From Gemmatimonadales bacterium (GTDB lineage: Bacteria > Gemmatimonadota > Gemmatimonadetes > Gemmatimonadales > GWC2-71-9), in assembly GCA_037189525.1 (NCBI GenBank), contig JBBCJC010000005.1, positions 352,001 to 416,000 of the forward strand: DNA of 64,000 bases. Reading direction: 5' to 3'. The stretch's first letter is position 1. Each line of letters opens with the position of its first letter. The notes below the pieces were generated by a model that saw only the letters and a list, made by a program, of their open reading frames with translations, had not been told where the DNA came from and did not search any database. This document shows, one piece after another, positions 3,920 through 15,405 of this stretch. The position numbers and the translations under genes are program-made.

Positions 3920-6166
3920 TTACAGGATCCCATCCAGGTAGAGATCGAACCGCCACCCCGTCGGGCCCCGGAGACCGCGCGCCAGGTCCGCACGGATCAG
4001 CCCGTCGAGAAAACTGGCCCCGACCCCGGCGCTCAAGAGCGGCCGCCCCGACCAGAACTCGTCGCGCGCGCCGGCCCATCCGATATCGGAGAACAGCGAC
4101 AGGCGGACCGCAGGAAAGCTGTTGGCAACCTCGGCGCGACCGGTCCAGAACGCAGGCCCCGCCATCACGCCCCCATCATAGCCACGCAGCGTTACCGGGC
4201 CGCCGAGGTAGAACCAACTCTGCACCGGCGAGGTCCCCTCGGTGGCTCCCGCCGATACGGAGGCGCCAAAGGCCAGCGGGCCGCGCGGCGTAACCCAACT
4301 GCGGAGGGTCATCGAGCCACGACCGAACTTGTAGTCGCCGGTGGCGCCCTCGACGAACGCTTCGCCTCCGATGCCGACTGACCGGGACAACGCCCGAGTG
4401 CCGCGAACTTTGAGGCTGCCGCCGAACTGATCCGCACCATTCGCAGCAATGTTCGGACGATATGCCGCGTCGGACCCCAGCAGGTGCGCAATCGAAAAAT
4501 CGGTTTCCACCCGGGCTGCGCGTTGACGTTCGTAGTAGATCCGGCTTTCCAGCCATCCCGAACCGACGGTTTGCGTCCCCTCGATGCCCTCGGTACGGTA
4601 GTACTGGCCGTCGTCACGATGGGTAAAGAGGCCCGCCAGGCTGTTCATGACGCCAAAGGGCCGAGTCTCGGGATTGGCCGCAACCAGCCGGCGATAGACG
4701 GCTACCCGGCTGTTGTCGCCCAGCGTCGACCCGGTGCTTACCCCCACCTCGGCGTTGAGCCACCCATCGGCCAGGCCGATCCGCGCCCGCCCGTCCACCG
4801 CAAACTTGCCGAAGTCGGCCCGCGCCCCGGTGCCGAGCGACAACGCCTCGATCCGGTTGAAACGCGCGTGCCGGAGCACCTCGGTTGCTCCGTAGGGAAG
4901 TTCCAGACGCGAGGCCCAGACCGGTCCCGGCAACTGGCCGATCGACGAGGCCAGGCCGCGTAACTCGTCTTCGCTGATCAGGTCGCCCATCGAGAGGATC
5001 GGTTCGCCGAGTGCGGGACTGGTGATCAGTTGGAGCGTATCATCAGGTACCGCGACGACCAGCACCGAGTCGGCGGTGTAGCGGTGCCGGCAGTCGGCGA
5101 CTTTCTGCCGATAGGCCCGGCGACCCTCTTCGGTCCGCATCGAACGATCGTCCCGCGCCTCATCGACACACTCGCGAACTACTCGACGCACGCTGTCGGA
5201 GCGGGCCCGCCGCATGGCGGAGTCGATCGGAATACCTGCTGCAGTCGTATCGGGCTGCCGCCTGGTGCCGGCCGGGCGGAAGGTACTGGCCGGATCGGGA
5301 GGCGTACCGCCTTCGACCTCGTAGTCGGCATAGACCTGCTCCATCCGGATCGGCATGTTGAGCCACGACCCCATAGTGCCGACCGCGTCGATAGCCGCGT
5401 AGCGCAACATCCACCAGCGCTCTTCGTACAAGCCGTATTCGAGCGTGACGTACTTGACCTCGCCCTTGGGATTGACCCAGCGGGGCACGTCCTCCCGATC
5501 TTCGGCCGAGATGTCCCGGCGGAACTCGAAGGGACGGGCTGGCCGAAAAATCATGCGCACCAGGCCATGCGTGTCGCCGTCGAACCAGAGCGCGCCCGAC
5601 ATCAACCGCCAGTCGGAACGGCGCGGAATGACACGGAGTTCGAGCAGCCGGATCCGTTTGCCGGAGGGGAGTGCAATCACGGTGGAATCGCCGACGGCAA
5701 AGCGGTAGTCGCGTTCCCCGCCCTCGCGCAGAGGATAGATGAACCCCTCGTCGTCCTCGCCCAGCCCGGCAAAGCGGAGCACGTCCTCGGCCGGATTGAT
5801 GACGAGGTCCCGGAGCCCGCTCTGCAGATCCTCGGGTACCTGATCGCCGCGCAAGGCAATCGGAACCCCCTGCCGGGCCCCGATGACTTCGATTCGGCTC
5901 GGCCGGTCACGGTACCATTCGATGTTGGCCGCGACTTCCTGGCGGAACAGCATCCGATCCCGGCCAACGGCCCGCACCCCGACCCCGATCCGCTGCGATA
6001 CAGAGGCGCGGTAGGAGGTGACCAGTCGCTCGTTCCGGTCCCGCGCCGCCCGGGCTCGCGCAACCAACTCGGCCGTCGCCGCATTGGCGTAGCTGTCGGA
6101 CGGCAGATTGGCGCGAACCGTGTCTTGAACGAGAAGGACAGAAAGGAGGGCGACTGCGACGACCAT
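3920..6166 (-). CDS. Putative outer-membrane protein with C-terminal beta-barrel (DUF5686/surface-antigen-like)
   Basis: Signal peptide; RFNRIEALSLG motif; YLGGPVTLRGY and alternating beta-strand C-terminus WRFDLYLDGIL. Confidence 0.7.
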   Translation of the reverse strand: MVVAVALLSVLLVQDTVRANLPSDSYANAATAELVARARAARDRNERLVTSYRASVSQRIGVGVRAVGRDRMLFRQEVAANIEWYRDRPSRIEVIGARQGVPIALRGDQVPEDLQSGLRDLVINPAEDVLRFAGLGEDDEGFIYPLREGGERDYRFAVGDSTVIALPSGKRIRLLELRVIPRRSDWRLMSGALWFDGDTHGLVRMIFRPARPFEFRRDISAEDREDVPRWVNPKGEVKYVTLEYGLYEERWWMLRYAAIDAVGTMGSWLNMPIRMEQVYADYEVEGGTPPDPASTFRPAGTRRQPDTTAAGIPIDSAMRRARSDSVRRVVRECVDEARDDRSMRTEEGRRAYRQKVADCRHRYTADSVLVVAVPDDTLQLITSPALGEPILSMGDLISEDELRGLASSIGQLPGPVWASRLELPYGATEVLRHARFNRIEALSLGTGARADFGKFAVDGRARIGLADGWLNAEVGVSTGSTLGDNSRVAVYRRLVAANPETRPFGVMNSLAGLFTHRDDGQYYRTEGIEGTQTVGSGWLESRIYYERQRAARVETDFSIAHLLGSDAAYRPNIAANGADQFGGSLKVRGTRALSRSVGIGGEAFVEGATGDYKFGRGSMTLRSWVTPRGPLAFGASVSAGATEGTSPVQSWFYLGGPVTLRGYDGGVMAGPAFWTGRAEVANSFPAVRLSLFSDIGWAGARDEFWSGRPLLSAGVGASFLDGLIRADLARGLRGPTGWRFDLYLDGIL

Positions 6167-6262
6167 TATTTCAATCCGGCAGGGACCCCACCCCTACGGC
6201 GGGGCCTTCTCCCGGGTTTCGTTTCGGAACAAGTCCGGTGACCGTATTCCACTCAGGGCGCG

Positions 6263-7822
6263 TTACACATATTTGACCTCGAGCGCCATCCCGGCCACGT
6301 GGTGATACTGATTGTGGCAGTGAAGCATCCACCGAGGCCCCGGGTTGTCCGCCACGAACTCGAGTACGTGACGATCGACGTTGTGCAAAGTCAGGGTGTC
6401 CTTCCGGAGCGGCGCCCTCAGATCCTCGGTGGCGCCATAGGGGCGGACCAGATCGAAGAAATGGCCGTGGAAGTGCACCGGGTGCCCGACGACCGTCCCA
6501 TTCCGAATCGACAGCCGAACCCGTTCGCCGCGCTTGACCTCGAGCGGTTCACCCGCCGGATAGATCCGCCCGCTGATGGCCCAGAGAAATCCGTTGTGCC
6601 CCATTTCGAAGAGCAGATCGTACTCGCGATCGACGGGCTGGGGTGTCCGCGGCTCGATGCCCACCAGGCCATCGTAGGGCCGCCATTCGTACGACTCGAG
6701 CGGCGGCGGACGATCGACGGCCTCGGTACCGCGCACCCCGTGATAGCGGACATCGATCCCAAAGCCCCGATCACGATACAGGGGCTCCATCGAACCAAGC
6801 CGCCAGACGCCAGGTTGATCGGCTTCGACGATGACATCGAACCGTTCTCCCATGCCCACCGAAAGGACCTCGACGGTCTTGGGCGACACCGGCTGTCCAT
6901 CGGTGTGAGTGATGGTCATCCGGTGCCCTGAGAGATAGATCGGGAAGACCGCCGCCGTCCCGACGTTGATGAAACGGAGCCGAATCCGTTCACCCTCGCG
7001 AAAGACCAGCGGCGGATTCGCGCGGGCGACCCGTCCGTTGACCGTGAACGCGTCGAAGACCGGCTCCATGATCGGCAGCCCGTGGCCGCCGCCGTGATGG
7101 CCGACTCGCGCCGCAGCCAGCGAATCGGCCTGCCTCCGCATCCGGGCAAGCGACGGTCCCTTCGCGGCCACGCCGGGGAATCCGTTGAGACGGTACCGCA
7201 CCGAATCGGTCGTAAAATCCCGACTGCCGAGCACTTTGCCGCCCAGCACGAAATTGTGATACGCCTCGGCAAAGACGGGATCGTCCGGTTGATGGAGCCA
7301 GTCGTCGAGCAGGATCGTGTACTCCCGATCGTAGGCCAGCTCCTCCCGACGGGGACGCACGATGATGCCCCCGAAGAGTCCCCGCTCGTACTGAAAGGCG
7401 TAGTGCGAGTGGTACCAGTAAGTGCCGGCATGGTCGACCGGAAATTCGTACACGAAGCGCTCGCCCGGCGCGATCGGTTCCTGGGTAAGCTCCGGCACAC
7501 CGTCCATGGCAAACGGCACCGGCAAGCCATGCCAATGCGCCGTGATCGGCTCGCTGAGCGCGTTATCGACCACGATTCGGGCCGTCTGCCCGACCTCGAA
7601 CTCGAGCATCGGGCCCGGCACCGTTCCATTGAACGTATACGCCGGAACGATTCGTCCGTCGCCAACATCCCACGGGGCCTGCTGGGCCTTGAGGTGATAC
7701 TCCCGGATCTGGCGACCAGCGACCGGGTCCGTCAATTCGCGCACCAGCCACGGCAGAGCCGCGGCACTGGCCGCAGCTCCGCTCAGTCGGCGAATGAACG
7801 CTCTACGAGTTTCATCACGCAT
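6263..7822 (-). CDS. Tat-exported multicopper oxidase
   Basis: RRAFI Tat motif; all four Cu motifs HWHG, WYHSH, HPVHFHG, HCHNQYHHVAGM. Confidence 0.95.
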   Translation of the reverse strand: MRDETRRAFIRRLSGAAASAAALPWLVRELTDPVAGRQIREYHLKAQQAPWDVGDGRIVPAYTFNGTVPGPMLEFEVGQTARIVVDNALSEPITAHWHGLPVPFAMDGVPELTQEPIAPGERFVYEFPVDHAGTYWYHSHYAFQYERGLFGGIIVRPRREELAYDREYTILLDDWLHQPDDPVFAEAYHNFVLGGKVLGSRDFTTDSVRYRLNGFPGVAAKGPSLARMRRQADSLAAARVGHHGGGHGLPIMEPVFDAFTVNGRVARANPPLVFREGERIRLRFINVGTAAVFPIYLSGHRMTITHTDGQPVSPKTVEVLSVGMGERFDVIVEADQPGVWRLGSMEPLYRDRGFGIDVRYHGVRGTEAVDRPPPLESYEWRPYDGLVGIEPRTPQPVDREYDLLFEMGHNGFLWAISGRIYPAGEPLEVKRGERVRLSIRNGTVVGHPVHFHGHFFDLVRPYGATEDLRAPLRKDTLTLHNVDRHVLEFVADNPGPRWMLHCHNQYHHVAGMALEVKYV

Positions 7823-7831
7823 GGTTGAAAC

Positions 7832-9352
7832 CTATGCTCGCGTTGGATCGCACGCGACAAAATTCGGGTTGTTCTCCTCGGCCTTGGGAATCGGCAGCGC
7901 GACATGATTCCCGTAGGTGCCGTTGGTCGGATTCTGCCGCACGATGGCGCCACCACTGACCCGTTCGACGAAGTAGGGCCGGTTACCGCCACCGGGATAG
8001 GTAGCGGCCTCGGTCCGGCCGTACGGCGCGCGGAGCAAGCGCCGCAGATCCGCGAGGCGATGACCCGTTCCCCACAGCCAAAAGGCCCGTTCCCGGAAGA
8101 GCAAGTCGACATCCTCGGTCGTGATCTGCCCGGGTGTCGGAGCCGCCAGCGGAGGCAGCGGGGTGGTGACCGGCGCGGGGTTCGTCGCGGACGCGCCCGT
8201 CGCGAACGGATCGGCGGGATAGAGCGTCAGGTCGGCGCGCAGCGCGTTGAGAATATCGAGGTAACCCGCCTCGTCGCCGGCACGCTGCCTGGCTTCCGCG
8301 ATGATCAGCTGCGCCTCCAGATAGTCCGCCAGGACGATCGGCGTTACCAGCGTCGGGTACTTGCCACCGAAGAAAAACGGCAGCGCCCCGTCGAACGACA
8401 GGGCCGAGGCGCCCGTGCCCCGCCGCGACGTCACCCGAGGATCACCGGCGCCGCGGAAGTCGAGACCGACACCGCCCGGAATCGGGCCGGTCGTCTCAGC
8501 GGGTGCGGCGGCTTCCCGATCGGCAATCGAGTAGCGTCGGGTATTCCAGTTCATCGGGAAGAACCCGTTGGTCTGCCGGGTCGTCGTGGTCGAGTGCGTC
8601 GAGGTAAACCGGAAGCCTCGCGGCACGCCGGCAACCGTCGTCGCTGCCGCCGCGGCATCACCCAGGCCGAGTTGCGCTCGCGCTTTGCCCACGGTGGCGA
8701 AATGAACCAGGTTGGCCGCATTGGCTCCGATCGGCGTCAGCGCAGCCACCGCCGAGTCAAACTTCGCGATGGCGCGGCCGACGATCGCTTCTCGCGTCAC
8801 CAGCGAGCTGTAGATCTCCGTGCCTGTGGCGGCATCGAACTCACTGATCGGTTGGGGAGCGCAGAAGTTCTCCGCCAGCCAGAGATAGGTATAGCCGGCA
8901 TAGGCCAGCAGTTCGCCGTGACGAACATCGGTCGCCGGCGTCGGCGACAGCCGGCGGACGGCGGCGGCCGCCTGCTCCGTAGCGCGCCGCGCCCGATGGA
9001 TATTGCGGTAGACGCCGAGGACGGTGCCGTTGTCGGGCGTCACGGCGCGCGCATCGATCTCCTGACGCGACGCAGCGGGGTCGCCGATCGGGACCTCGTC
9101 GGAAAAGAGCGCGGTAATCTGCAGCACCCCTTCACTGTTCCCGCTCCCGACGGCCGAGTTGGCCACCATCCATTCACCGATGGCGCCGGCCCAGAGTGGA
9201 CCGATCCCGTTGGGCGACTCGAGCCGGTCGGGCGTGAAGACGTTGGGCGTATCGACATCGACGATGTCGGACGGCGAGCACGCGCTCAGCGCCGCGAGCA
9301 CGATGCCCCAGACGGCCGATGAGCGGAGTGGATATCGGATTGAGATTCGCAT
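7832..9352 (-). CDS. SusD/RagB-like outer-membrane lipoprotein
   Basis: ATG at 9352, 5 nt after SusC stop; lipobox LSAC; EAQLIIAEA, LFRERAFWLWGTGHRLADLRR, ALPIPKAEENNPN motifs. Confidence 0.88.
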   Translation of the reverse strand: MRISIRYPLRSSAVWGIVLAALSACSPSDIVDVDTPNVFTPDRLESPNGIGPLWAGAIGEWMVANSAVGSGNSEGVLQITALFSDEVPIGDPAASRQEIDARAVTPDNGTVLGVYRNIHRARRATEQAAAAVRRLSPTPATDVRHGELLAYAGYTYLWLAENFCAPQPISEFDAATGTEIYSSLVTREAIVGRAIAKFDSAVAALTPIGANAANLVHFATVGKARAQLGLGDAAAAATTVAGVPRGFRFTSTHSTTTTRQTNGFFPMNWNTRRYSIADREAAAPAETTGPIPGGVGLDFRGAGDPRVTSRRGTGASALSFDGALPFFFGGKYPTLVTPIVLADYLEAQLIIAEARQRAGDEAGYLDILNALRADLTLYPADPFATGASATNPAPVTTPLPPLAAPTPGQITTEDVDLLFRERAFWLWGTGHRLADLRRLLRAPYGRTEAATYPGGGNRPYFVERVSGGAIVRQNPTNGTYGNHVALPIPKAEENNPNFVACDPTRA

Positions 9353-9357
9353 AGTGA

Positions 9358-12300
9358 TCAGAGCCCCAGGCTGGCGCGAACGATGAAGCTGCGCGTCGGC
9401 GGCTGCGTAAAATTGTCGCGGGTCAGTGTCTCGATGATGCCGCCAAAACCGTTGACCTCCGGGTCGGAGCCGGAGTACCCCGTCAGGATCCCGAGATTGC
9501 GGACCGCGAACAGCAGCGTCGCGCTCTGCGCACCGACCAGACGGGCTACCCGGGTCGGCGCCAGGTAACTCACCGACAACTCGCGGAATCGGACGAAGTC
9601 GCCCTTCTCGATGAAGCCGTACGGCGTACTGCCGAGCGCCGCCGTTACCCGAGCCACGGCCGCGGCCTGGACATCGAGCGGCGCGGACGGATCGTTGACA
9701 CCCCGGCAGTTGAGCGCGGTGGCGCACCGGGAGGCCTCGGTGCCGTTCTGCACCTTGTGGCCGCCCCGATAGTCGACCTGCCCCGCAATCCGCACCCGGT
9801 GTTTGAACGTGATCGAGGTATTGAAGGCCAGTTCCCGGGTCGGGAACGCCGAGCCGGCGTACACGGCGGTATCACCGACGGTGATTTCGGACGCGGCCAG
9901 CAAGCCGTCGCCGTTGACATCGCCGTAGCTCACGATCGGACGGGCCCAGAATCCGTACAGCGGATATCCGATCGCGATGCGCTGCTCGGTCGAATTGCCA
10001 TGATAGAAGGGCGGGATCGGGTTCCCCTGCGGATCGGTGCCTAGATCGCGCACCCTATTGCGCAGCAGGTTGCCCGTGAAGGTCGCGTCCCACGCCACGC
10101 CGTCGCTCCGGAACGGACGGAGCACCAGCGCAACCTCGAGGCCTTCGTTGCGGGTACTGCCGAGGTTGTACAACTGCGTCGCGGCGACACCGAGCGAGGG
10201 GGCCAGGGTCCGGAAGATCAGCGCGTCGCGGGTCGTCTTCTGGAAGAAGGTCGCCTCGAGCCCGATCGCTCCGCTGGTGGTCGCGAAGTCCAGACCGGCT
10301 TCGATTTCGCTCGACGTTTCCGGGCGCAGATTGCCGTTGCCGGCATTGTTGAGGATTACACCGGGATAGTCGGTGCCTCCGACCGTGGCCGTGACCAGCG
10401 AGAGCGTCTGCAGCGCAGCCGTGATGTTCGAGCCGGTCGGCAGCACACTCGCTTCGCCCCACGCCGCCCGAAGCCGCAAGGTGCCCAGCCAGTCGGGGCG
10501 CGGGAACCAGCTTTCTTCCGACACGAGATAGGACGCATTGAACCGCGGCTGGATCGACGGGGTGAAGTTGGTCCCGACCGACGAAGCCCGGTCGATCCGG
10601 CCGGCCGCCGTTAGAAACAACCGATCGCGAATCGCGACCTGCTGCTCGACCAGCGCACCGACCGTGACCGACGCGATCCGCGACTCGGACGCGGACAGCG
10701 TCCCCGAGCCGGTGATGATCTCGGAGCCGGGAATGAAGTTGGAGCCTTGCGAGGTCTGGCTCTGGAACGAATTGCGGAAGTACTGGAGGCCGGCCGTGGT
10801 GCGAGCCGTGATGCGCTGCCCCAACGGATACGACGCGGTCGCATCGACCGTTCCGGTATACTGCCGGATCGTGGCCAGATCCTTGGCGCGGTTGCCGGTG
10901 GCCTGCCCTGTGGGGCACTCGCCGATCTGGCAGAACTCCTGGTCGGCCCGCTGGGTCAGGTCATAACCGAAGACGCCGCGAACCGACAGTCCGCCAAACG
11001 GACTCCAGGTTCCGGACAGACTCGAGGTGAAGCGTTCGATCCCCTGGGTCAGTCGATCCGAAAAGATTTCGCCGGGTCGATAGGTGCGCCACCCCCCGTT
11101 GGCCTGCGCATCGCCGAAACTGCCCGGACCAAGCAGCGCGTTGTACAGGAGGCCGGTGCCGTTCCCGTCGTTGAGCGGCCGGCGCCAGTTGCTCGACAAA
11201 TACCCGACGCTCGCATTGAGCTCGCCGTTGGCTGCCACCTTGGCCGCCACATTCGATCGGAAACTGTAGCGCCCGTAGAACCCGGGGCGGCGAATCAGAT
11301 CCGGCACACCGTCCTGGTACCCTCGCTCGGCGATGATCCGATCCGCCTCGACCTGAGGCAGCCGGTAAGGACCTTCATCGCTCTCGTACTCCCCGGACAC
11401 GTAGTACCGGACCGCGTCGGTCCCGCCGGATACGTTGGCTCCGTACTGCTGGCGTCGTCCTGACGCGATCGGACTCCGCTCGACGTCGAAGAGCACGCTG
11501 AAGGTGGTCACGCTGTCGATGCTGCAGGTGCCGAGCGCCGCTGCGTAGGTGTAGCAGTTGTGAACCGCGGTACCCGAAGCGTTCCGTCCGTAGCTAGCGT
11601 AGTTGGGCTGGTACCGCTTGGGGTCGGTAATGACGCCCTGCTCGACCGAAAATGTCCAGCGCGGCCCCGACGCCTTGCCGCGTCGGGTGGTCACCAACAG
11701 CACCCCGTTGGCGGCTTCGGGTCCGTAGAGCGTGGAGGCCGACGGCCCCTTGATGACCTGGACGTTCTCGATGTCGTCCGGATTGATATCGTTGAGCCGG
11801 GACGGCGTCTGTGTAAAGGTGGCCCGGGTCGCGGAAATAGTGCTGCTCTCGACTCGCACCCCGTCGACGAACAGGAGTGGCGCGTTGGTGAGCGACACGG
11901 ATGAGATCCCGCGAATGCGGACGATCGCTCCCGATCCCGGCGCACCGGAGGTCGGCGCGATGGCCAAACCGGGCACCCGACCTTGCAGCAGGTCGGACAA
12001 GGTTCGGATCGGCGCTTCGCCCACCAGCGAATCGGCCCCGATCCGTCCGATCGTGTGGCCTAACGCCAGGCGCCGCTGCTCTCCGGTCGCCGTCACGACG
12101 AGTTCACCAAGGTTGTAGGGCAGCGCCACGAGCGCGATGTCGAGCACCGTGGAGCCGCCATCCGTGACGGTAACCGACTGACGACGACTCTGATATCCGA
12201 TGGCCGTGACCTGGACTTCCCGAAGTCCCGGCTCGACCTCGCTCAACCGATACGCTCCGTTCTCGTCGGTAACGGCCTGTTCTCTGGACCCGACGAGGCT

Positions 12301-12501
12301 GACCCGGCCTCCCGCCACCGGCCGTTCCGTTGCCGCATCCCGGACCGTTCCCGAAATCACCGCCGCGGCTCGACGCTGCTGCTGCGCGACTACACCCGCG
12401 GGGCCGCCCTGCGCTGACCCGATGTCCACCCCGCCTATGCCAACCAGGAGCATCAGTGCTCCAAGCGTTCGCGGGATTCGTTTCCCTGCTGAACCGACCA
12501 C
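9358..12501 (-). CDS. SusC/RagA-family TonB-dependent outer-membrane transporter
   Basis: GTG at 12501 with GGAGG 5 nt upstream; carboxypeptidase-regulatory-like N-domain; plug motif SRLNDINPDDIENVQVIKGPSASTLYGPEAANGVLLVTTRRG; YSGSDPEVN near C-terminus. Confidence 0.93.
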   Translation of the reverse strand: MVGSAGKRIPRTLGALMLLVGIGGVDIGSAQGGPAGVVAQQQRRAAAVISGTVRDAATERPVAGGRVSLVGSREQAVTDENGAYRLSEVEPGLREVQVTAIGYQSRRQSVTVTDGGSTVLDIALVALPYNLGELVVTATGEQRRLALGHTIGRIGADSLVGEAPIRTLSDLLQGRVPGLAIAPTSGAPGSGAIVRIRGISSVSLTNAPLLFVDGVRVESSTISATRATFTQTPSRLNDINPDDIENVQVIKGPSASTLYGPEAANGVLLVTTRRGKASGPRWTFSVEQGVITDPKRYQPNYASYGRNASGTAVHNCYTYAAALGTCSIDSVTTFSVLFDVERSPIASGRRQQYGANVSGGTDAVRYYVSGEYESDEGPYRLPQVEADRIIAERGYQDGVPDLIRRPGFYGRYSFRSNVAAKVAANGELNASVGYLSSNWRRPLNDGNGTGLLYNALLGPGSFGDAQANGGWRTYRPGEIFSDRLTQGIERFTSSLSGTWSPFGGLSVRGVFGYDLTQRADQEFCQIGECPTGQATGNRAKDLATIRQYTGTVDATASYPLGQRITARTTAGLQYFRNSFQSQTSQGSNFIPGSEIITGSGTLSASESRIASVTVGALVEQQVAIRDRLFLTAAGRIDRASSVGTNFTPSIQPRFNASYLVSEESWFPRPDWLGTLRLRAAWGEASVLPTGSNITAALQTLSLVTATVGGTDYPGVILNNAGNGNLRPETSSEIEAGLDFATTSGAIGLEATFFQKTTRDALIFRTLAPSLGVAATQLYNLGSTRNEGLEVALVLRPFRSDGVAWDATFTGNLLRNRVRDLGTDPQGNPIPPFYHGNSTEQRIAIGYPLYGFWARPIVSYGDVNGDGLLAASEITVGDTAVYAGSAFPTRELAFNTSITFKHRVRIAGQVDYRGGHKVQNGTEASRCATALNCRGVNDPSAPLDVQAAAVARVTAALGSTPYGFIEKGDFVRFRELSVSYLAPTRVARLVGAQSATLLFAVRNLGILTGYSGSDPEVNGFGGIIETLTRDNFTQPPTRSFIVRASLGL

Positions 12502-12661
12502 AACGTCCTCCAAACCATGAACGTCACGACGCGTCCCCGATCGAGGGGCCTGAGATGGTCCTCGTCGGATCAACGTCCAATTGAGGGAGTTTCCCGTCTG
12601 ACGTCGGCGTCAGCGGTTTCCCTTTATGGTTGATGCGAGATCTGTTCGCTCCACACCGGCT

Positions 12662-12721
12662 TCGATTCCGTGAGCGGAATCGACGGACGCCACGCGATAC
12701 GCCCCGCTGTGCCGGGGCGTA
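12662..12721 (-). promoter_or_regulatory. Two perfect 9-bp hairpins in the leader between the uORF and susC
   Basis: TCGATTCCG-tgag-CGGAATCGA (12662-12683) and TACGCCCCG-ctgtgc-CGGGGCGTA (12698-12721). Confidence 0.55.
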
Positions 12722-12753
12722 CTACGGTGCGCCACTTGCGTCGATGCAGCGGT

Positions 12754-13128
12754 CTACACGACGGGTGGAGCGTGCGACGGAGGCAGGAGGTAACGAGGAC
12801 GGGTCAGTGCGTCGTCCGGCGCCGCGGCGCCGGCGCCGATCACCAGCGTGATCGGCAGATTGCCCAACATGACCTGGCCCGGCGGTACCGTCCCTACGAC
12901 CGCCGCGCCGGTACATGATCCGACACAATGACAGGCAGAGTGACCTTTGTGCTGATGGTCATCCTCTGTTGCGCAATGATGCTCGTTCTGATCGGCCTCG
13001 TGGCTGGTGACGAGCCAAGGCGCATCGACCGGGCAGGGATGGACGATCGGCGCGATGATCCCTGCCAGCAGTGGGGACACCACTAGCAGGTAGGCCAACC
13101 ATCGCATGCGCCGAAGCCGAGCCATCAT
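12754..13128 (-). CDS. DUF2946/CruR/CutF-like His/Cys-rich uORF with Pro-rich C-terminus
   Basis: Hydrophobic N-terminus, EHHCATEDDHQHKGHSACHCVGSC, C-terminal YLLPPSHAPPVV*; directly upstream of a TonB-dependent transporter; TTGGCC-18-TATTTT promoter 6 nt before ATG. Confidence 0.75.
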   Translation of the reverse strand: MMARLRRMRWLAYLLVVSPLLAGIIAPIVHPCPVDAPWLVTSHEADQNEHHCATEDDHQHKGHSACHCVGSCTGAAVVGTVPPGQVMLGNLPITLVIGAGAAAPDDALTRPRYLLPPSHAPPVV

Positions 13129-13185
13129 GAAGCCAAAATAGTCACACCGCGTGCGGCTGGCCAAGCAGCCGGGCAACACCCCCGG

Positions 13186-15405
13186 CTACTTCACCTCGAA
13201 GACCCCCATCATCCCCGCTTCCATGTGCTCGGCGATGTGGCAGTGCATCATCCATTTGCCCGGATTCGACATCTCCACCAGCAGGTCGACCGTGCCACCC
13301 ACCGGAATCAGCGCCGTATCCTTCCAGACCAGATTGGTGCTGGGCACGTCGTTGTGGGTCAGAATCAGGAAACGCTGCCCGTGCAGATGGATCGGGTGCG
13401 ACATCGGGTGCAGCGAGGTGCGGTCGTTCCCGATCCGGATCTTGACCAGGTCGCCGACCCGGAACTTCCAGTCGACCGCCATGTTCTCGTTACCGGTCTT
13501 GGCGTCCCGAAGGACCCACTCGACCTGCTTCGCCGTCGGGAGCCAGTCCATCATCGGCATGGTGCCGGCCCACTCCACCGGATGCGAATACATCACGTCC
13601 CGCCGAAGCATCTGGAGCAGGCCGAACGGCAGTTCACCCAACCGCAGAGTGAGCAGGATTTCGCGATCGGGCGCCTTGTCGATCCAGGCCCGATAGGGCG
13701 CCACCTCAGTCACCACATCCCGGTTGGTCCGCAGCGTTCGGTATTCCTGCTCGTAACTCGGAGCAGCCGGCGCCCCGGCGACCTGCACCACACCGAGCGT
13801 GTCGTGCTCGGGGAAGAAAGCCCCGATGTTGTGATCGATCCCCTGCACCTGGTTCATCATCGCGTACCGGCCGGCCGCGGGGAACCGGACATCGACGATG
13901 TAGCGTTGCGCCGGCGCCAGCGGCACGCTCTCAGTCCAGCTTTCCCGCTCGTACCGGCCGATGTCGGCGCCGACTAACTTCATGGTCGCGCCGGGAATGG
14001 TCCAGTTGAAGGTGCGGGTATTGGACGCATTGGTGAGATAGAAGCGAACGATCTCGCCGGGCCGCGCCTCGAAGCGGTAGTCGGTTTCGCCGTTGACGAG
14101 AAAGACGTTGCCGAACCGGCCCATCAGTGCGTGGGTCGCATGCTCCGCCCCGAACGGCACCAGACCCTGGTCGCCGAGCAGGAGGTCGTCGAGCAGGAGC
14201 GTCTCTTCCCGGTGGACCGGACCGAACGCATCGGGCCGCTTGGGATGCACCAGTATATTGCCGTAGAGCCCCAGATCCTGCTGGATGTCTTCCCGGAAAT
14301 GCGAGTGATACCAGTAGATCCCCGCGTCCTTGAAATGGACCCGGTAGAGATACTCGCCGCCCGCGGGCACCGGGTCCTGAGTGACACCGGGCACCCCGTC
14401 ACTTCGGTTTTCCAGCCGGATCCCGTGCCAGTGCACCGCGCTCGGCTGATCGAGCGCATTCCGGAAGCGCACGGTGACCGTGGCGTTCTCGGCGACCTGC
14501 AACAGCGGGCCGGGATACTGCCCGTTGTAGGCAAACATCACCAGCGTCCTGCCGTTGATGGTCCGGCGGACCAGCGATGCGGTCATCGTGAGCGTGTCGC
14601 CGTCGGCGAGTTTGAGCAGCTCCCGCGGCCGCGCTTCCGGCAGCAGGCGCGCATTCAATCCGGTGCCCGGGAGATACGGCGTTGCCGGAGGCACCAGTTC
14701 ATCGACACCCGGCATCGGCATCATCGGAATGCGGGGATTGTCCGGCGGCATGAACCACTGGGCCGGCGGAACCGTATCCCCACCAACCGCCTGGCCGTGA
14801 CCGTGCGCGCCGTGGCCATGATGCGCCATGCCGGCCGAATCGGCCGTTCCCGCCAGCATCATCATCGAATGCTGCTGCATCCGAATACTGGGTGACATCC
14901 CGCGCAGTACCAGCCGGCCGGCCCGTTCGGTCACATCGGCGGATGCTTCGGCCGTGATGAAGACCAGGAACTTGTCGTCGTTGATCTCACCGATCGGAGT
15001 GCGGCCGTTCTTGACGATGCCCACCTTGCGCATCGGGTCGAGCGAAGGCGGGGTGACCCACGCCACATACGCCGTGTACGGACCGAGCGACGACGGCGGC
15101 GGCAGGTTCTCGACGACGATCGTGGCGTCGTAGCGCTGATTGCCCGCCGCCGTGACCGCCACATCATAGGGAGAGTCCGGACGGCCCAGTTCGACCACAC
15201 CTTTGAGGTCGGGCACCTCGGGACGGGGAATCAGGTCGAGACAGTAGAGGTCGGTGCTGGGGCGAAGTCCGGCCGCCCCGTTCTCTTCACATAGCGGGCG
15301 AGTTCCCGGTACCGGTACGCCGCCCAGGGCCAGCACACAGACACCGAGCGCGACGGCTCGTAACCACCGCCTGGGCCTTCGCATCATTGCATACTCCGGT
15401 CGCAC
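13186..15405 (-). CDS. Multicopper oxidase with extra N-terminal domain and His/Met-rich linker
   Basis: HWHG, WYHSH, HPIHLHG, HCHIAEHMEAGM; linker QQHSMMM...MAHHGHGAHGHG; start could be 15387. Confidence 0.93.
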   Translation of the reverse strand: MRPEYAMMRRPRRWLRAVALGVCVLALGGVPVPGTRPLCEENGAAGLRPSTDLYCLDLIPRPEVPDLKGVVELGRPDSPYDVAVTAAGNQRYDATIVVENLPPPSSLGPYTAYVAWVTPPSLDPMRKVGIVKNGRTPIGEINDDKFLVFITAEASADVTERAGRLVLRGMSPSIRMQQHSMMMLAGTADSAGMAHHGHGAHGHGQAVGGDTVPPAQWFMPPDNPRIPMMPMPGVDELVPPATPYLPGTGLNARLLPEARPRELLKLADGDTLTMTASLVRRTINGRTLVMFAYNGQYPGPLLQVAENATVTVRFRNALDQPSAVHWHGIRLENRSDGVPGVTQDPVPAGGEYLYRVHFKDAGIYWYHSHFREDIQQDLGLYGNILVHPKRPDAFGPVHREETLLLDDLLLGDQGLVPFGAEHATHALMGRFGNVFLVNGETDYRFEARPGEIVRFYLTNASNTRTFNWTIPGATMKLVGADIGRYERESWTESVPLAPAQRYIVDVRFPAAGRYAMMNQVQGIDHNIGAFFPEHDTLGVVQVAGAPAAPSYEQEYRTLRTNRDVVTEVAPYRAWIDKAPDREILLTLRLGELPFGLLQMLRRDVMYSHPVEWAGTMPMMDWLPTAKQVEWVLRDAKTGNENMAVDWKFRVGDLVKIRIGNDRTSLHPMSHPIHLHGQRFLILTHNDVPSTNLVWKDTALIPVGGTVDLLVEMSNPGKWMMHCHIAEHMEAGMMGVFEVK

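Follow-up and report, generated by a model that had tools for sequence, protein, structure and literature searches.

The Locus and the Accessory Cassette

The DNA analysed here, hereafter the window, is a 64,000-nt stretch of contig JBBCJC010000005.1 of a Gemmatimonadales bacterium. It carries a small upstream open reading frame (uORF), which starts 57 nt after a multicopper oxidase gene, ahead of susC, and belongs to an accessory cassette. The features discussed below are the following:

6231-13185 (-): accessory cassette of 6,955 bp (promoter, uORF, leader, susC, susD, oxidase), present or absent at the site
6263-7822 (-): multicopper oxidase starting 9 nt after susD; its N-terminus is twin-arginine-like and the four His/Cys motifs are all present
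7832-9352 (-): SusD-like lipoprotein (LSAC lipobox), starting 5 nt after the susC stop
9358-12501 (-): SusC/RagA TonB-dependent transporter; likely start GTG at 12501 with GGAGGA at 12511-12506, database start ATG at 12453
12502-12753 (-): structured intergenic leader of 252 nt, with no TAnnnT -10 box and no Rfam family, its distal half unlike other susC leaders
12647-12657 (-): orphan ribosome-binding site (RBS) GGTGTGGAGCG, for which pairing with the HAPP codons is predicted at P about 0.7
12754-13128 (-): uORF of 124 aa, a CruR/CutF-like leader of an Arg-less Gemmatimonadota family
12763-12786 (-): LPPSHAPP tail; the codons CAC GCT CCA CCC form a C-rich, G-poor tract that is also a predicted anti-Shine-Dalgarno
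12913-12933 (-): CxCxxxC (C66, C68, C72), a candidate metal site 46 residues before the His of HAPP; the motif is found in 88 of 103 genome loci
13033-13128 (-): export-signal-like N-terminus, judged by inspection of the sequence, ending in the conserved HPC (C32)
13135-13164 (-): predicted promoter of the leader, TTGGCC (13164-13159), 18 nt, TATTTT (13140-13135), based on sequence and family geometry and below the scan threshold
13186-15405 (-): upstream multicopper oxidase, which is not part of the cassette but flanks the insertion site; conserved in the genus

Translation of the uORF (12754-13128, minus strand) gives 124 aa, MMARLRRMRW...CHCVGSC...RPRYLLPPSHAPPVV*, and all the features ascribed to it by the original prediction are present: a signal-like N-terminus with 4 basic residues among the first 10 followed by a 15-residue hydrophobic stretch (Kyte-Doolittle mean 2.45), then HPC, a His-rich tract, the C-x-C-xxx-C motif as CHCVGSC, and the C-terminal tail RPRYLLPPSHAPPVV. 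The HAPP codons, predicted at about 12763-12774, were found at 12774-12763; HAPP ends 2 residues before the stop, with PP at residues 121-122, and the spacer from the Cys motif to the tail is 46 residues. An NCBIfam scan of the uORF returned nothing meaningful.

The SusC protein scores above the cut-off of TIGR04056 (373.9 bits) and carries no copper signature, while the SusD-like protein falls below the cut-off of Pfam SusD_RagB. In a search of the representative library the nearest other SusC cluster is 42% identical, and the nearest SusD matches are 46% identical or less. The cassette oxidase has a single match in the 400 other genomes of the phylum at E<=1e-60, and the matches in a plasmid search were all below 60%. 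None of the 14 loci of the nearest SusCD pairs (0/14) has such a leader or oxidase.

In the four congeners, of five, whose junction was read, the cassette is missing and the gene at 3920-6166 follows the upstream oxidase directly; all five lack the body of the cassette block. Among metagenome contigs the filled form occurs in runs X2 and X6 at ~97-98% identity, and an empty junction skipping 6,955 bases (6230 to 13186) in X6 and X7, from two studies. With the empty state in the congeners and both states among the metagenome contigs, the set of promoter, leader, susCD and oxidase is gained or lost as a single block. The empty junction carries 2 other letters, and inspection by eye revealed no duplication at the cassette ends. 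It is also worth mentioning that the upstream oxidase (13186-15405, minus strand; 739 aa) has a long N-terminal extension and a His/Met-rich linker, and that where the cassette is absent it is located directly before an Omp85/ShlB-like barrel gene (3920-6166), an arrangement conserved in the genus.

A Family of Arg-Less Leaders in Gemmatimonadota

Homologues of the uORF were found with a 32-sequence profile (E<=1e-4) in at least 133 of 401 genomes of the phylum, a lower bound since at most 10 candidates were scored per genome; a smaller, three-sequence profile had matches in 64 of the 401. The named homologues are hypothetical proteins of Gemmatimonadales/Gemmatimonadota, and the placement of this leader type in a phylum other than that of the known examples holds. 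Two collections were compared. The protein set comprises 120 of 153 database proteins, one of them the window's own. Because the protein profile had been seeded with TAPP-rich sequences, genomic stretches were added: 100 stretches around the stronger of 165 profile matches, leaving out four at contig ends and the weakest, which together with the window give 106 leader loci.

Among the 120 of 153 proteins the tails are TAPP (109), HAPP (7), NAPP (1) and HGPP (1), with two lacking x[AG]PP; 103 of the 106 loci end in x[AG]PP, as TAPP (50), QAPP (8), NGPP (8), NAPP (7), VGPP (6), IGPP (6), HAPP (5), LAPP (4) or others (9). Arg at the x position was found in 0 of the 103 loci and 0 of the 120 proteins (120 of 153 examined), and RAPP accordingly 0 times. 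Counting from the last Cys of CxCxxxC, the x residue lies at a distance of 44-48 in 117 of the 118 tail-motif proteins (from the 120 of 153 examined), with 46 in 80 of them, and of 43-48 in 87 of the 88 genome loci with CxCxxxC; the length of this spacer is fixed, its sequence free. The conserved tail can be written [LHQR]-P-[PFY]-x-x-[AG]-P-P, and the anatomy in common consists of an export signal (retained by 110 of 114 family proteins), HxC, CxCxxxC, the ~46-residue spacer and the P[PFY]xx[AG]PP tail. The Cys and xAPP motifs, poor conservation of which had been named as one of the outcomes speaking against the original idea, are thus conserved in the homologues along with the spacer.

The notion of His replacing an Arg does not survive as a family feature, as the position is mostly Thr and variable. 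In a quick tree, computed without the tail and with many forks unresolved, the window copy and five other HAPP proteins form a group nested among TAPP relatives, and at least three changes are required to account for His at the x position.

The same genome encodes further family members: a HAPP paralogue before a TonB receptor and pyrR-pyrB-pyrC (L113, G000:C5:97173-97583, minus strand) and a TAPP copy with CopC downstream (L114, G000:C3:202519-202908, minus strand). A recent duplication of the paralogue at C5:97173 was considered as the origin of the window copy and dismissed at ~50% identity; as this is its nearest paralogue, the window copy has been retained for a long time. Elsewhere, two family leaders occur in one locus, in tandem or each heading its own gene set: L054 (G239), where the order is leader-CopC/D-leader-receptor, L067 (G127), L068 (G108), L121 (G025) and L056 (G243).

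Relationship to CruR, CutF and the RQH Peptides

The comparison begins with two exported leaders. In CruR (Bp2923) of Bordetella pertussis, 45 residues separate CXXC from RAPP; over 2000 proteins keep this interval, which regulation requires (PMC9426467). Its arrest has been demonstrated and was abolished by R139A, and the Arg was irreplaceable in three RAPP peptides (PMC12992588); the arrest is relieved by Cu, and the control involves Rho-dependent termination (PMC9426467; PMC12992588). CutF of Rhodobacter capsulatus has a Sec signal and a CxxxC motif 45 residues before PEPEGPPPRL; here Cu-induced, export- and EF-P-dependent stalling unmasks the downstream RBS, so that a multicopper oxidase is induced (PMC9973294; bioRxiv 10.1101/2025.02.05.636593). 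CutF-like proteins, which are not all copper-specific, were surveyed by the rules <150 aa, PP within the last 15 residues, a same-strand neighbour at <1000 nt and a SignalP Sec signal, giving 29 cluster profiles (PMC9973294).

The kinship with the DUF2946-type leaders CruR and CutF that was proposed originally is supported. DUF2946 (PF11162) is the sole Pfam match of the uORF protein and covers it at full length (residues 10-122 over profile positions 2-117), and the 46-residue spacer agrees, but the score of 13.1 bits (E 0.17) lies below the cut-off of 23.7. DUF2946 is weakly matched by 12 of 32 homologues, five other families being matched once each; the best DUF2946 E-value of any family member is 0.0055, and in the ESM Atlas neighbour cluster of the uORF protein 26% of the members carry DUF2946. 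With a sub-threshold score, CxCxxxC in place of CXXC and HAPP in place of RAPP, all three being defining features of DUF2946/CruR, the uORF is not placed as a member, and judged by its sequence the family appears to be a distant, Arg-less offshoot of CruR/CutF.

With CruR the family shares a small exported uORF located first in an operon before a TonB-dependent transporter, a Cys motif 45-46 residues before a C-terminal xAPP, a long intergenic region, and a C-rich 3' end that uses rare Pro codons. It differs in having CxCxxxC rather than CxxC, in the absence of Arg (0/103 loci) and the conserved P[PFY]xx before [AG]PP, in scoring below the DUF2946 cut-off, in its occurrence in Gemmatimonadota, in a leaderless start where CruR has a 45-nt leader, and in tail codons predicted to mask the downstream RBS; the window copy, furthermore, stands before SusC/SusD and an oxidase. 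By analogy with CruR, itself predicted to be so, the uORF protein is probably largely disordered. The likeness to CutF lies in a putative Sec-type signal (in the window by inspection), CxxxC (C68-VGS-C72 in the window), a 45-residue spacer (46 in the window), a proline tail without Arg and a multicopper oxidase in the unit. The window uORF also agrees with the size, proline and neighbour rules of the CutF-like survey, with 124 aa, PP at 121-122 and a same-strand neighbour at 252 nt. However, the masking stem-loop of CutF is intergenic, whereas the predicted anti-Shine-Dalgarno of the window lies in the tail codons, and the oxidase that directly follows CutF comes third in the window, behind susCD.

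HAPP itself, put forward as a non-canonical motif, is not new: a HAPP peptide arrested B. subtilis ribosomes in vitro (PMC10987492), and the CutF tail PEPEGPPPRL also has no Arg before its prolines. Natural HAPP and QAPP peptides arrest ribosomes in vitro, with weaker arrest in vivo (PMC10987492), which makes HAPP a plausible arrest motif and one that is already on record. The window HAPP matches the R/Q/H-[AG]-PP tail pattern of these RQH peptides, and uDF_RQH_Lachnospirales (HAPP) and uA_RQH_Myxococcales (QAPP) are likewise small exported uORFs with a C-terminal HAPP or QAPP (PMC10987492), a likeness of motif. The RQH peptides, however, sit before secA or secDF (yidC) and monitor secretion, whereas the window uORF sits before susC; the commonest tail of the family, TAPP, is absent from the main text of PMC10987492.

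The family was not named by any paper in the literature searched (mostly titles and abstract openings), and none there joins SusC, SusD, multicopper oxidase and copper. In the portions of main text available, the string 'Gemmatimonad' was not found in PMC9973294, PMC12992588, PMC10987492, PMC12914433 or PMC9426467, nor was it found in three supplementary files each of the two mBio papers. Since the member list and phylum figure of the CutF-like survey lay outside these files, family members may be present in that survey unnoticed.

Other candidate leaders are found in the same genome. A canonical-looking one (L201, G000:C2:1098025-1098435, plus strand; CALC, 45 residues, RAPP) stands before the gene of a TonB receptor that has ZnuD, below cut-off, as its best NCBIfam hit, so Arg-type and Arg-less leaders coexist in one genome. 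A CopL-family leader (L202, G000:C6:17828-20226, plus strand; NF033807 above cut-off) precedes a 608-aa gene with a twin-arginine-like start that is CopA-like by position; its contig, of 35.9 kb and 62.5% GC, is possibly foreign DNA or bin contamination. At L185 (G000:C5:598562-599026, plus strand), a small exported ORF rich in His, which lacks a proline tail and matches DUF2946 weakly, is perhaps another metal-sensing leader.

Genes Downstream of the Family Leaders

The first downstream gene of the 106 loci, with labels carried over from scanned representatives to BLAST clusters, encodes a TonB receptor in 75 (one of them split), MbnP in 8, CopC/CopD, SCO or PCuAC in 5, SusC in 1 (the window) and another protein in 9; in 8 loci there is none within 330 nt. 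Genes for CopC, CopD, SCO, PCuAC, CtaG, MbnP or MbnH are present among the first six genes in 32 of the 106. This context resembles that of CruR, in whose described neighbourhood PCuAC, SCO, CopC, MbnPH and AhpC/TSA recur (PMC9426467), largely the same neighbour set as that of the family. Of eight family receptors scanned, none passed the OprC copper-receptor cut-off. A BNR-repeat protein, usually with CPCC...GCPH, follows the receptor in 22 of the 106 loci (L033-L057 and others) and is a candidate metal-binding partner.

Neither SusC nor an oxidase was found among the called downstream genes of the other family loci, and the oxidase link is not a family trait. Control of both SusC and an oxidase, as originally proposed for the window, would be peculiar to this cassette: the combination occurs in 1 of 106 loci only, and the direct RBS coupling of the family is altered there.

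Leaderless Starts and Masking of the Downstream RBS

In the window the -10-like TATTTT ends 6 nt before the uORF ATG, a leaderless-type start with no Shine-Dalgarno sequence. A TAnnnT box ending 4-10 nt before the start is present in 63 of 106 family leaders, compared with none of the 92 starts of downstream genes and 1% of positions picked at random. A Shine-Dalgarno-like word precedes 2 of the 106 leader starts and 59 of the 92 downstream starts, which were chosen partly on Shine-Dalgarno strength; start codons of the homologues were picked by a heuristic, and some are visibly wrong. The family starts thus look leaderless, and the claim of the uORF's own, apparently leaderless promoter is borne out by this shared geometry, even though a consensus promoter scan called no site (0) for it.

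The codons of the tail, and of this part alone, show a synonymous bias. Third-position G is halved in the family tails (177 observed versus 355 expected in 730 codons), Ala is encoded by GCT or GCA in 46 of 75 cases versus 18% in the leader body, and CTCC occurs in the tail codons of 58 of 103 loci versus 14.5 expected. Among the 92 loci with an assignable start, the predicted RBS-tail pairing is 0.46, versus 0.32 after synonymous recoding, and native tail-RBS duplexes average -15.1 kcal/mol versus -13.95 kcal/mol for swapped ones (0 of 5000 permutations, the related genomes not being independent); in two control windows native duplexes were no better than swapped (p 0.21 and 0.69). Plotted along the mRNA, the duplex profile has only shallow relief and rises and falls with G content, and masking the tail lowers predicted RBS pairing no further than from 0.65 to 0.42. 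The tail codons of the family are predicted to pair with the RBS of the next gene. The same C-rich tract could act as a Rho site, as in CruR; a C>G bubble lies at ~12840-12710 in the window, and the genome encodes Rho and EF-P. Besides the main rho, a second Rho-like gene (451 bits, below cut-off) is located at G000:C2:93727-94839 (plus strand).

The Intergenic Leader of the Window Copy

The distance from the uORF stop to the next gene has a median of 106 nt in the 92 loci versus 252 nt in the window. Over its first 100 nt the intergenic region follows the paralogues in layout, including GTGGAGC, which is the receptor RBS in three close paralogues or orthologues (L113, L035 and L151). What comes after the site GGTGTGGAGCG in the window, however, is ATC (12641), which does not share the frame of susC, and no start codon; the susC start is located ~145 nt beyond it. 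The ATC was rejected as a susC start, being in the wrong frame with a stop after 5 codons, and an assembly error at 12641 is unlikely, as there is no difference in X2, X6 and X7. The tail pairs with susC's own RBS no better than average (-14.8 kcal/mol, rank 0.34). Since the ancestral RBS is without a start codon and susC lies 252 nt downstream, control in the window copy is likely indirect, acting through Rho or a relay in the RNA with a polarity that is uncertain, or has been lost; the orphan motif GTGGAGCG is a possible RNA relay element. By eye, an ATC-started 35-codon frame (12634-12527, minus strand) stands behind the orphan RBS and ends ~25 nt short of the susC start, perhaps as what remains of an earlier receptor's 5' end or as a relay ORF.

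No TAnnnT -10 box lies between the uORF and susC, and a consensus scan of the leader gave no promoter and no terminator. An Rfam scan at E<=5 over 12300-13300 gave only two chance snoRNA hits, so no riboswitch is recognised. The distal leader aligns no better than shuffles do to 14 other susC upstream regions of the genome and 16 in the fetched loci; a BLAST similarity to C1:182218 was dismissed as lying inside a coding gene.

Strains were compared using runs X2, X6 and X7, leaving out X9-X17 (small shares). The orphan site and the HAPP codons are unchanged in all three, and the leader differs at 1-3 positions among strains: 1 (X2) and 2 (X6) of 252 nt versus ~6 and ~8 expected from neighbouring coding pieces (p ~0.02 each). 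Of the differences within the uORF, 5 of 11 are synonymous and 6 of 11 change an amino acid; no Cys is lost and LPPSHAPP is unaltered.

A Proposed Mechanism and Its Alternatives

By anatomy and context the window uORF likely works like CruR and CutF, heading a cassette controlled by ribosome stalling, and it is probably a metal-sensing arrest leader that still controls this cassette, whichever the polarity. Transcription would start just before the ATG, and the leaderless mRNA would be translated at once. The ribosome would then pause at LPPSHAPP, which would place the CxCxxxC site at the translocon or immediately beyond the exit tunnel. In the family at large the paused ribosome would cover the C-rich tail codons and so free the RBS of the next gene. 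Because that RBS has lost its start codon in the window copy, direct unmasking appears to be cut there and the CruR route or an RNA relay is more likely: the stalled ribosome would hide the C-rich tract from Rho across the 252-nt leader, possibly helped by refolding of the latter. Copper would relieve the stall and shut expression, a polarity that we infer since the family neighbours are uptake and cuproprotein assembly genes, as for CruR.

Such copper-relieved control, with the cassette on while the ribosome is stalled at HAPP and off once copper releases it, is our tentative choice. It is favoured by the uORF travelling with the cassette, the absence of a -10 box before susC, and a leader conserved beyond neighbouring coding DNA. 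It is awkward for it that Arg is needed in CruR and the three RAPP peptides while HAPP/QAPP arrest is weaker in vivo than in vitro, and that a four-copper oxidase would be made under copper shortage; the SusC without a copper signature, the average pairing of the tail with the susC RBS and the 6 of 11 amino-acid-changing differences in the uORF also speak against it. In a rival reading the same switch has the opposite, CutF-type polarity, copper bound at the periplasmic mouth of SecY prolonging an otherwise weak, EF-P-sensitive pause and turning susC-susD-oxidase on. CutF also has no Arg before its prolines, has CxxxC, the 45-residue spacer and the Sec signal, and induces a multicopper oxidase; the export signal is retained in 110 of 114 family proteins, the cassette ends in one oxidase and sits behind another, and RBS masking is the output mode of CutF. 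This polarity is nevertheless rather doubtful, as no other of the 106 loci has an oxidase among its called downstream genes, the neighbours being uptake and assembly genes, and as the leader is long (252 nt) and the RBS masked by the tail has no start codon.

The altered leader also raises the idea, which we regard as unlikely, that the uORF now provides merely a promoter, the original receptor gene having been replaced by susCD-oxidase beyond the reach of metal control. The ancestral RBS followed by ATC and not ATG, with susC ~145 nt further on, the single occurrence of SusC after a leader (1 of 106 loci) and the 6 of 11 non-synonymous strain differences in the uORF would all fit; yet three other runs retain the Cys and tail residues, the leader varies less than the coding DNA next to it, the ~50% identity to the nearest paralogue means that the copy has long been kept, and an oxidase in the same unit fits a copper link. 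A leader tuned to another metal (Zn, Ni, Co) or to the redox state would accord with the His-rich tract and four to five Cys, with the reported lack of copper specificity of some CutF-like proteins (PMC9973294, as far as its text was available) and with family receptors that are not of OprC type by HMM, but copper-dedicated neighbours in 32 of 106 loci and the separate CxxC/RAPP leader before the receptor with ZnuD as its best hit make it very unlikely. Most improbable of all is a secreted metal-binding protein or chaperone acting in trans without translational arrest: the export signal and the many His/Cys ligands would suit it, whereas a spacer of fixed length and free sequence, a synonymous codon bias confined to the tail, and a gene that is first in its unit with a leaderless start would not.

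Returning to the leader that still controls its cassette, a bolder and decidedly unlikely version can be formulated, in which an Arg-less leaderless arrest leader was grafted as a portable module onto SusC/SusD and an oxidase. The result would be a mobile copper-responsive cassette and the first SusCD under copper-sensing arrest control; it might take up a copper chelate or a substrate of the oxidase, and the orphan RBS would serve anew as an RNA relay.

Implications

Since the class of mechanism is known and HAPP arrest is published, the gain lies in breadth, not in a new principle. The window copy contributes an example of a leader placed before new cargo, and were the grafted-module reading true, the filled and empty alleles would offer a natural before and after for the rewiring of such switches. 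If the family works as proposed, metal-sensing arrest leaders reach a third of the sampled Gemmatimonadota genomes, in a form that escapes the Pfam cut-off and RAPP/RGPP-based surveys. The family would supply some hundred tails from nature, with TAPP, NGPP, QAPP and HAPP among them, for studying stalling without Arg, and would let one ask whether the type of motif sets the on/off polarity that separates CruR from CutF.
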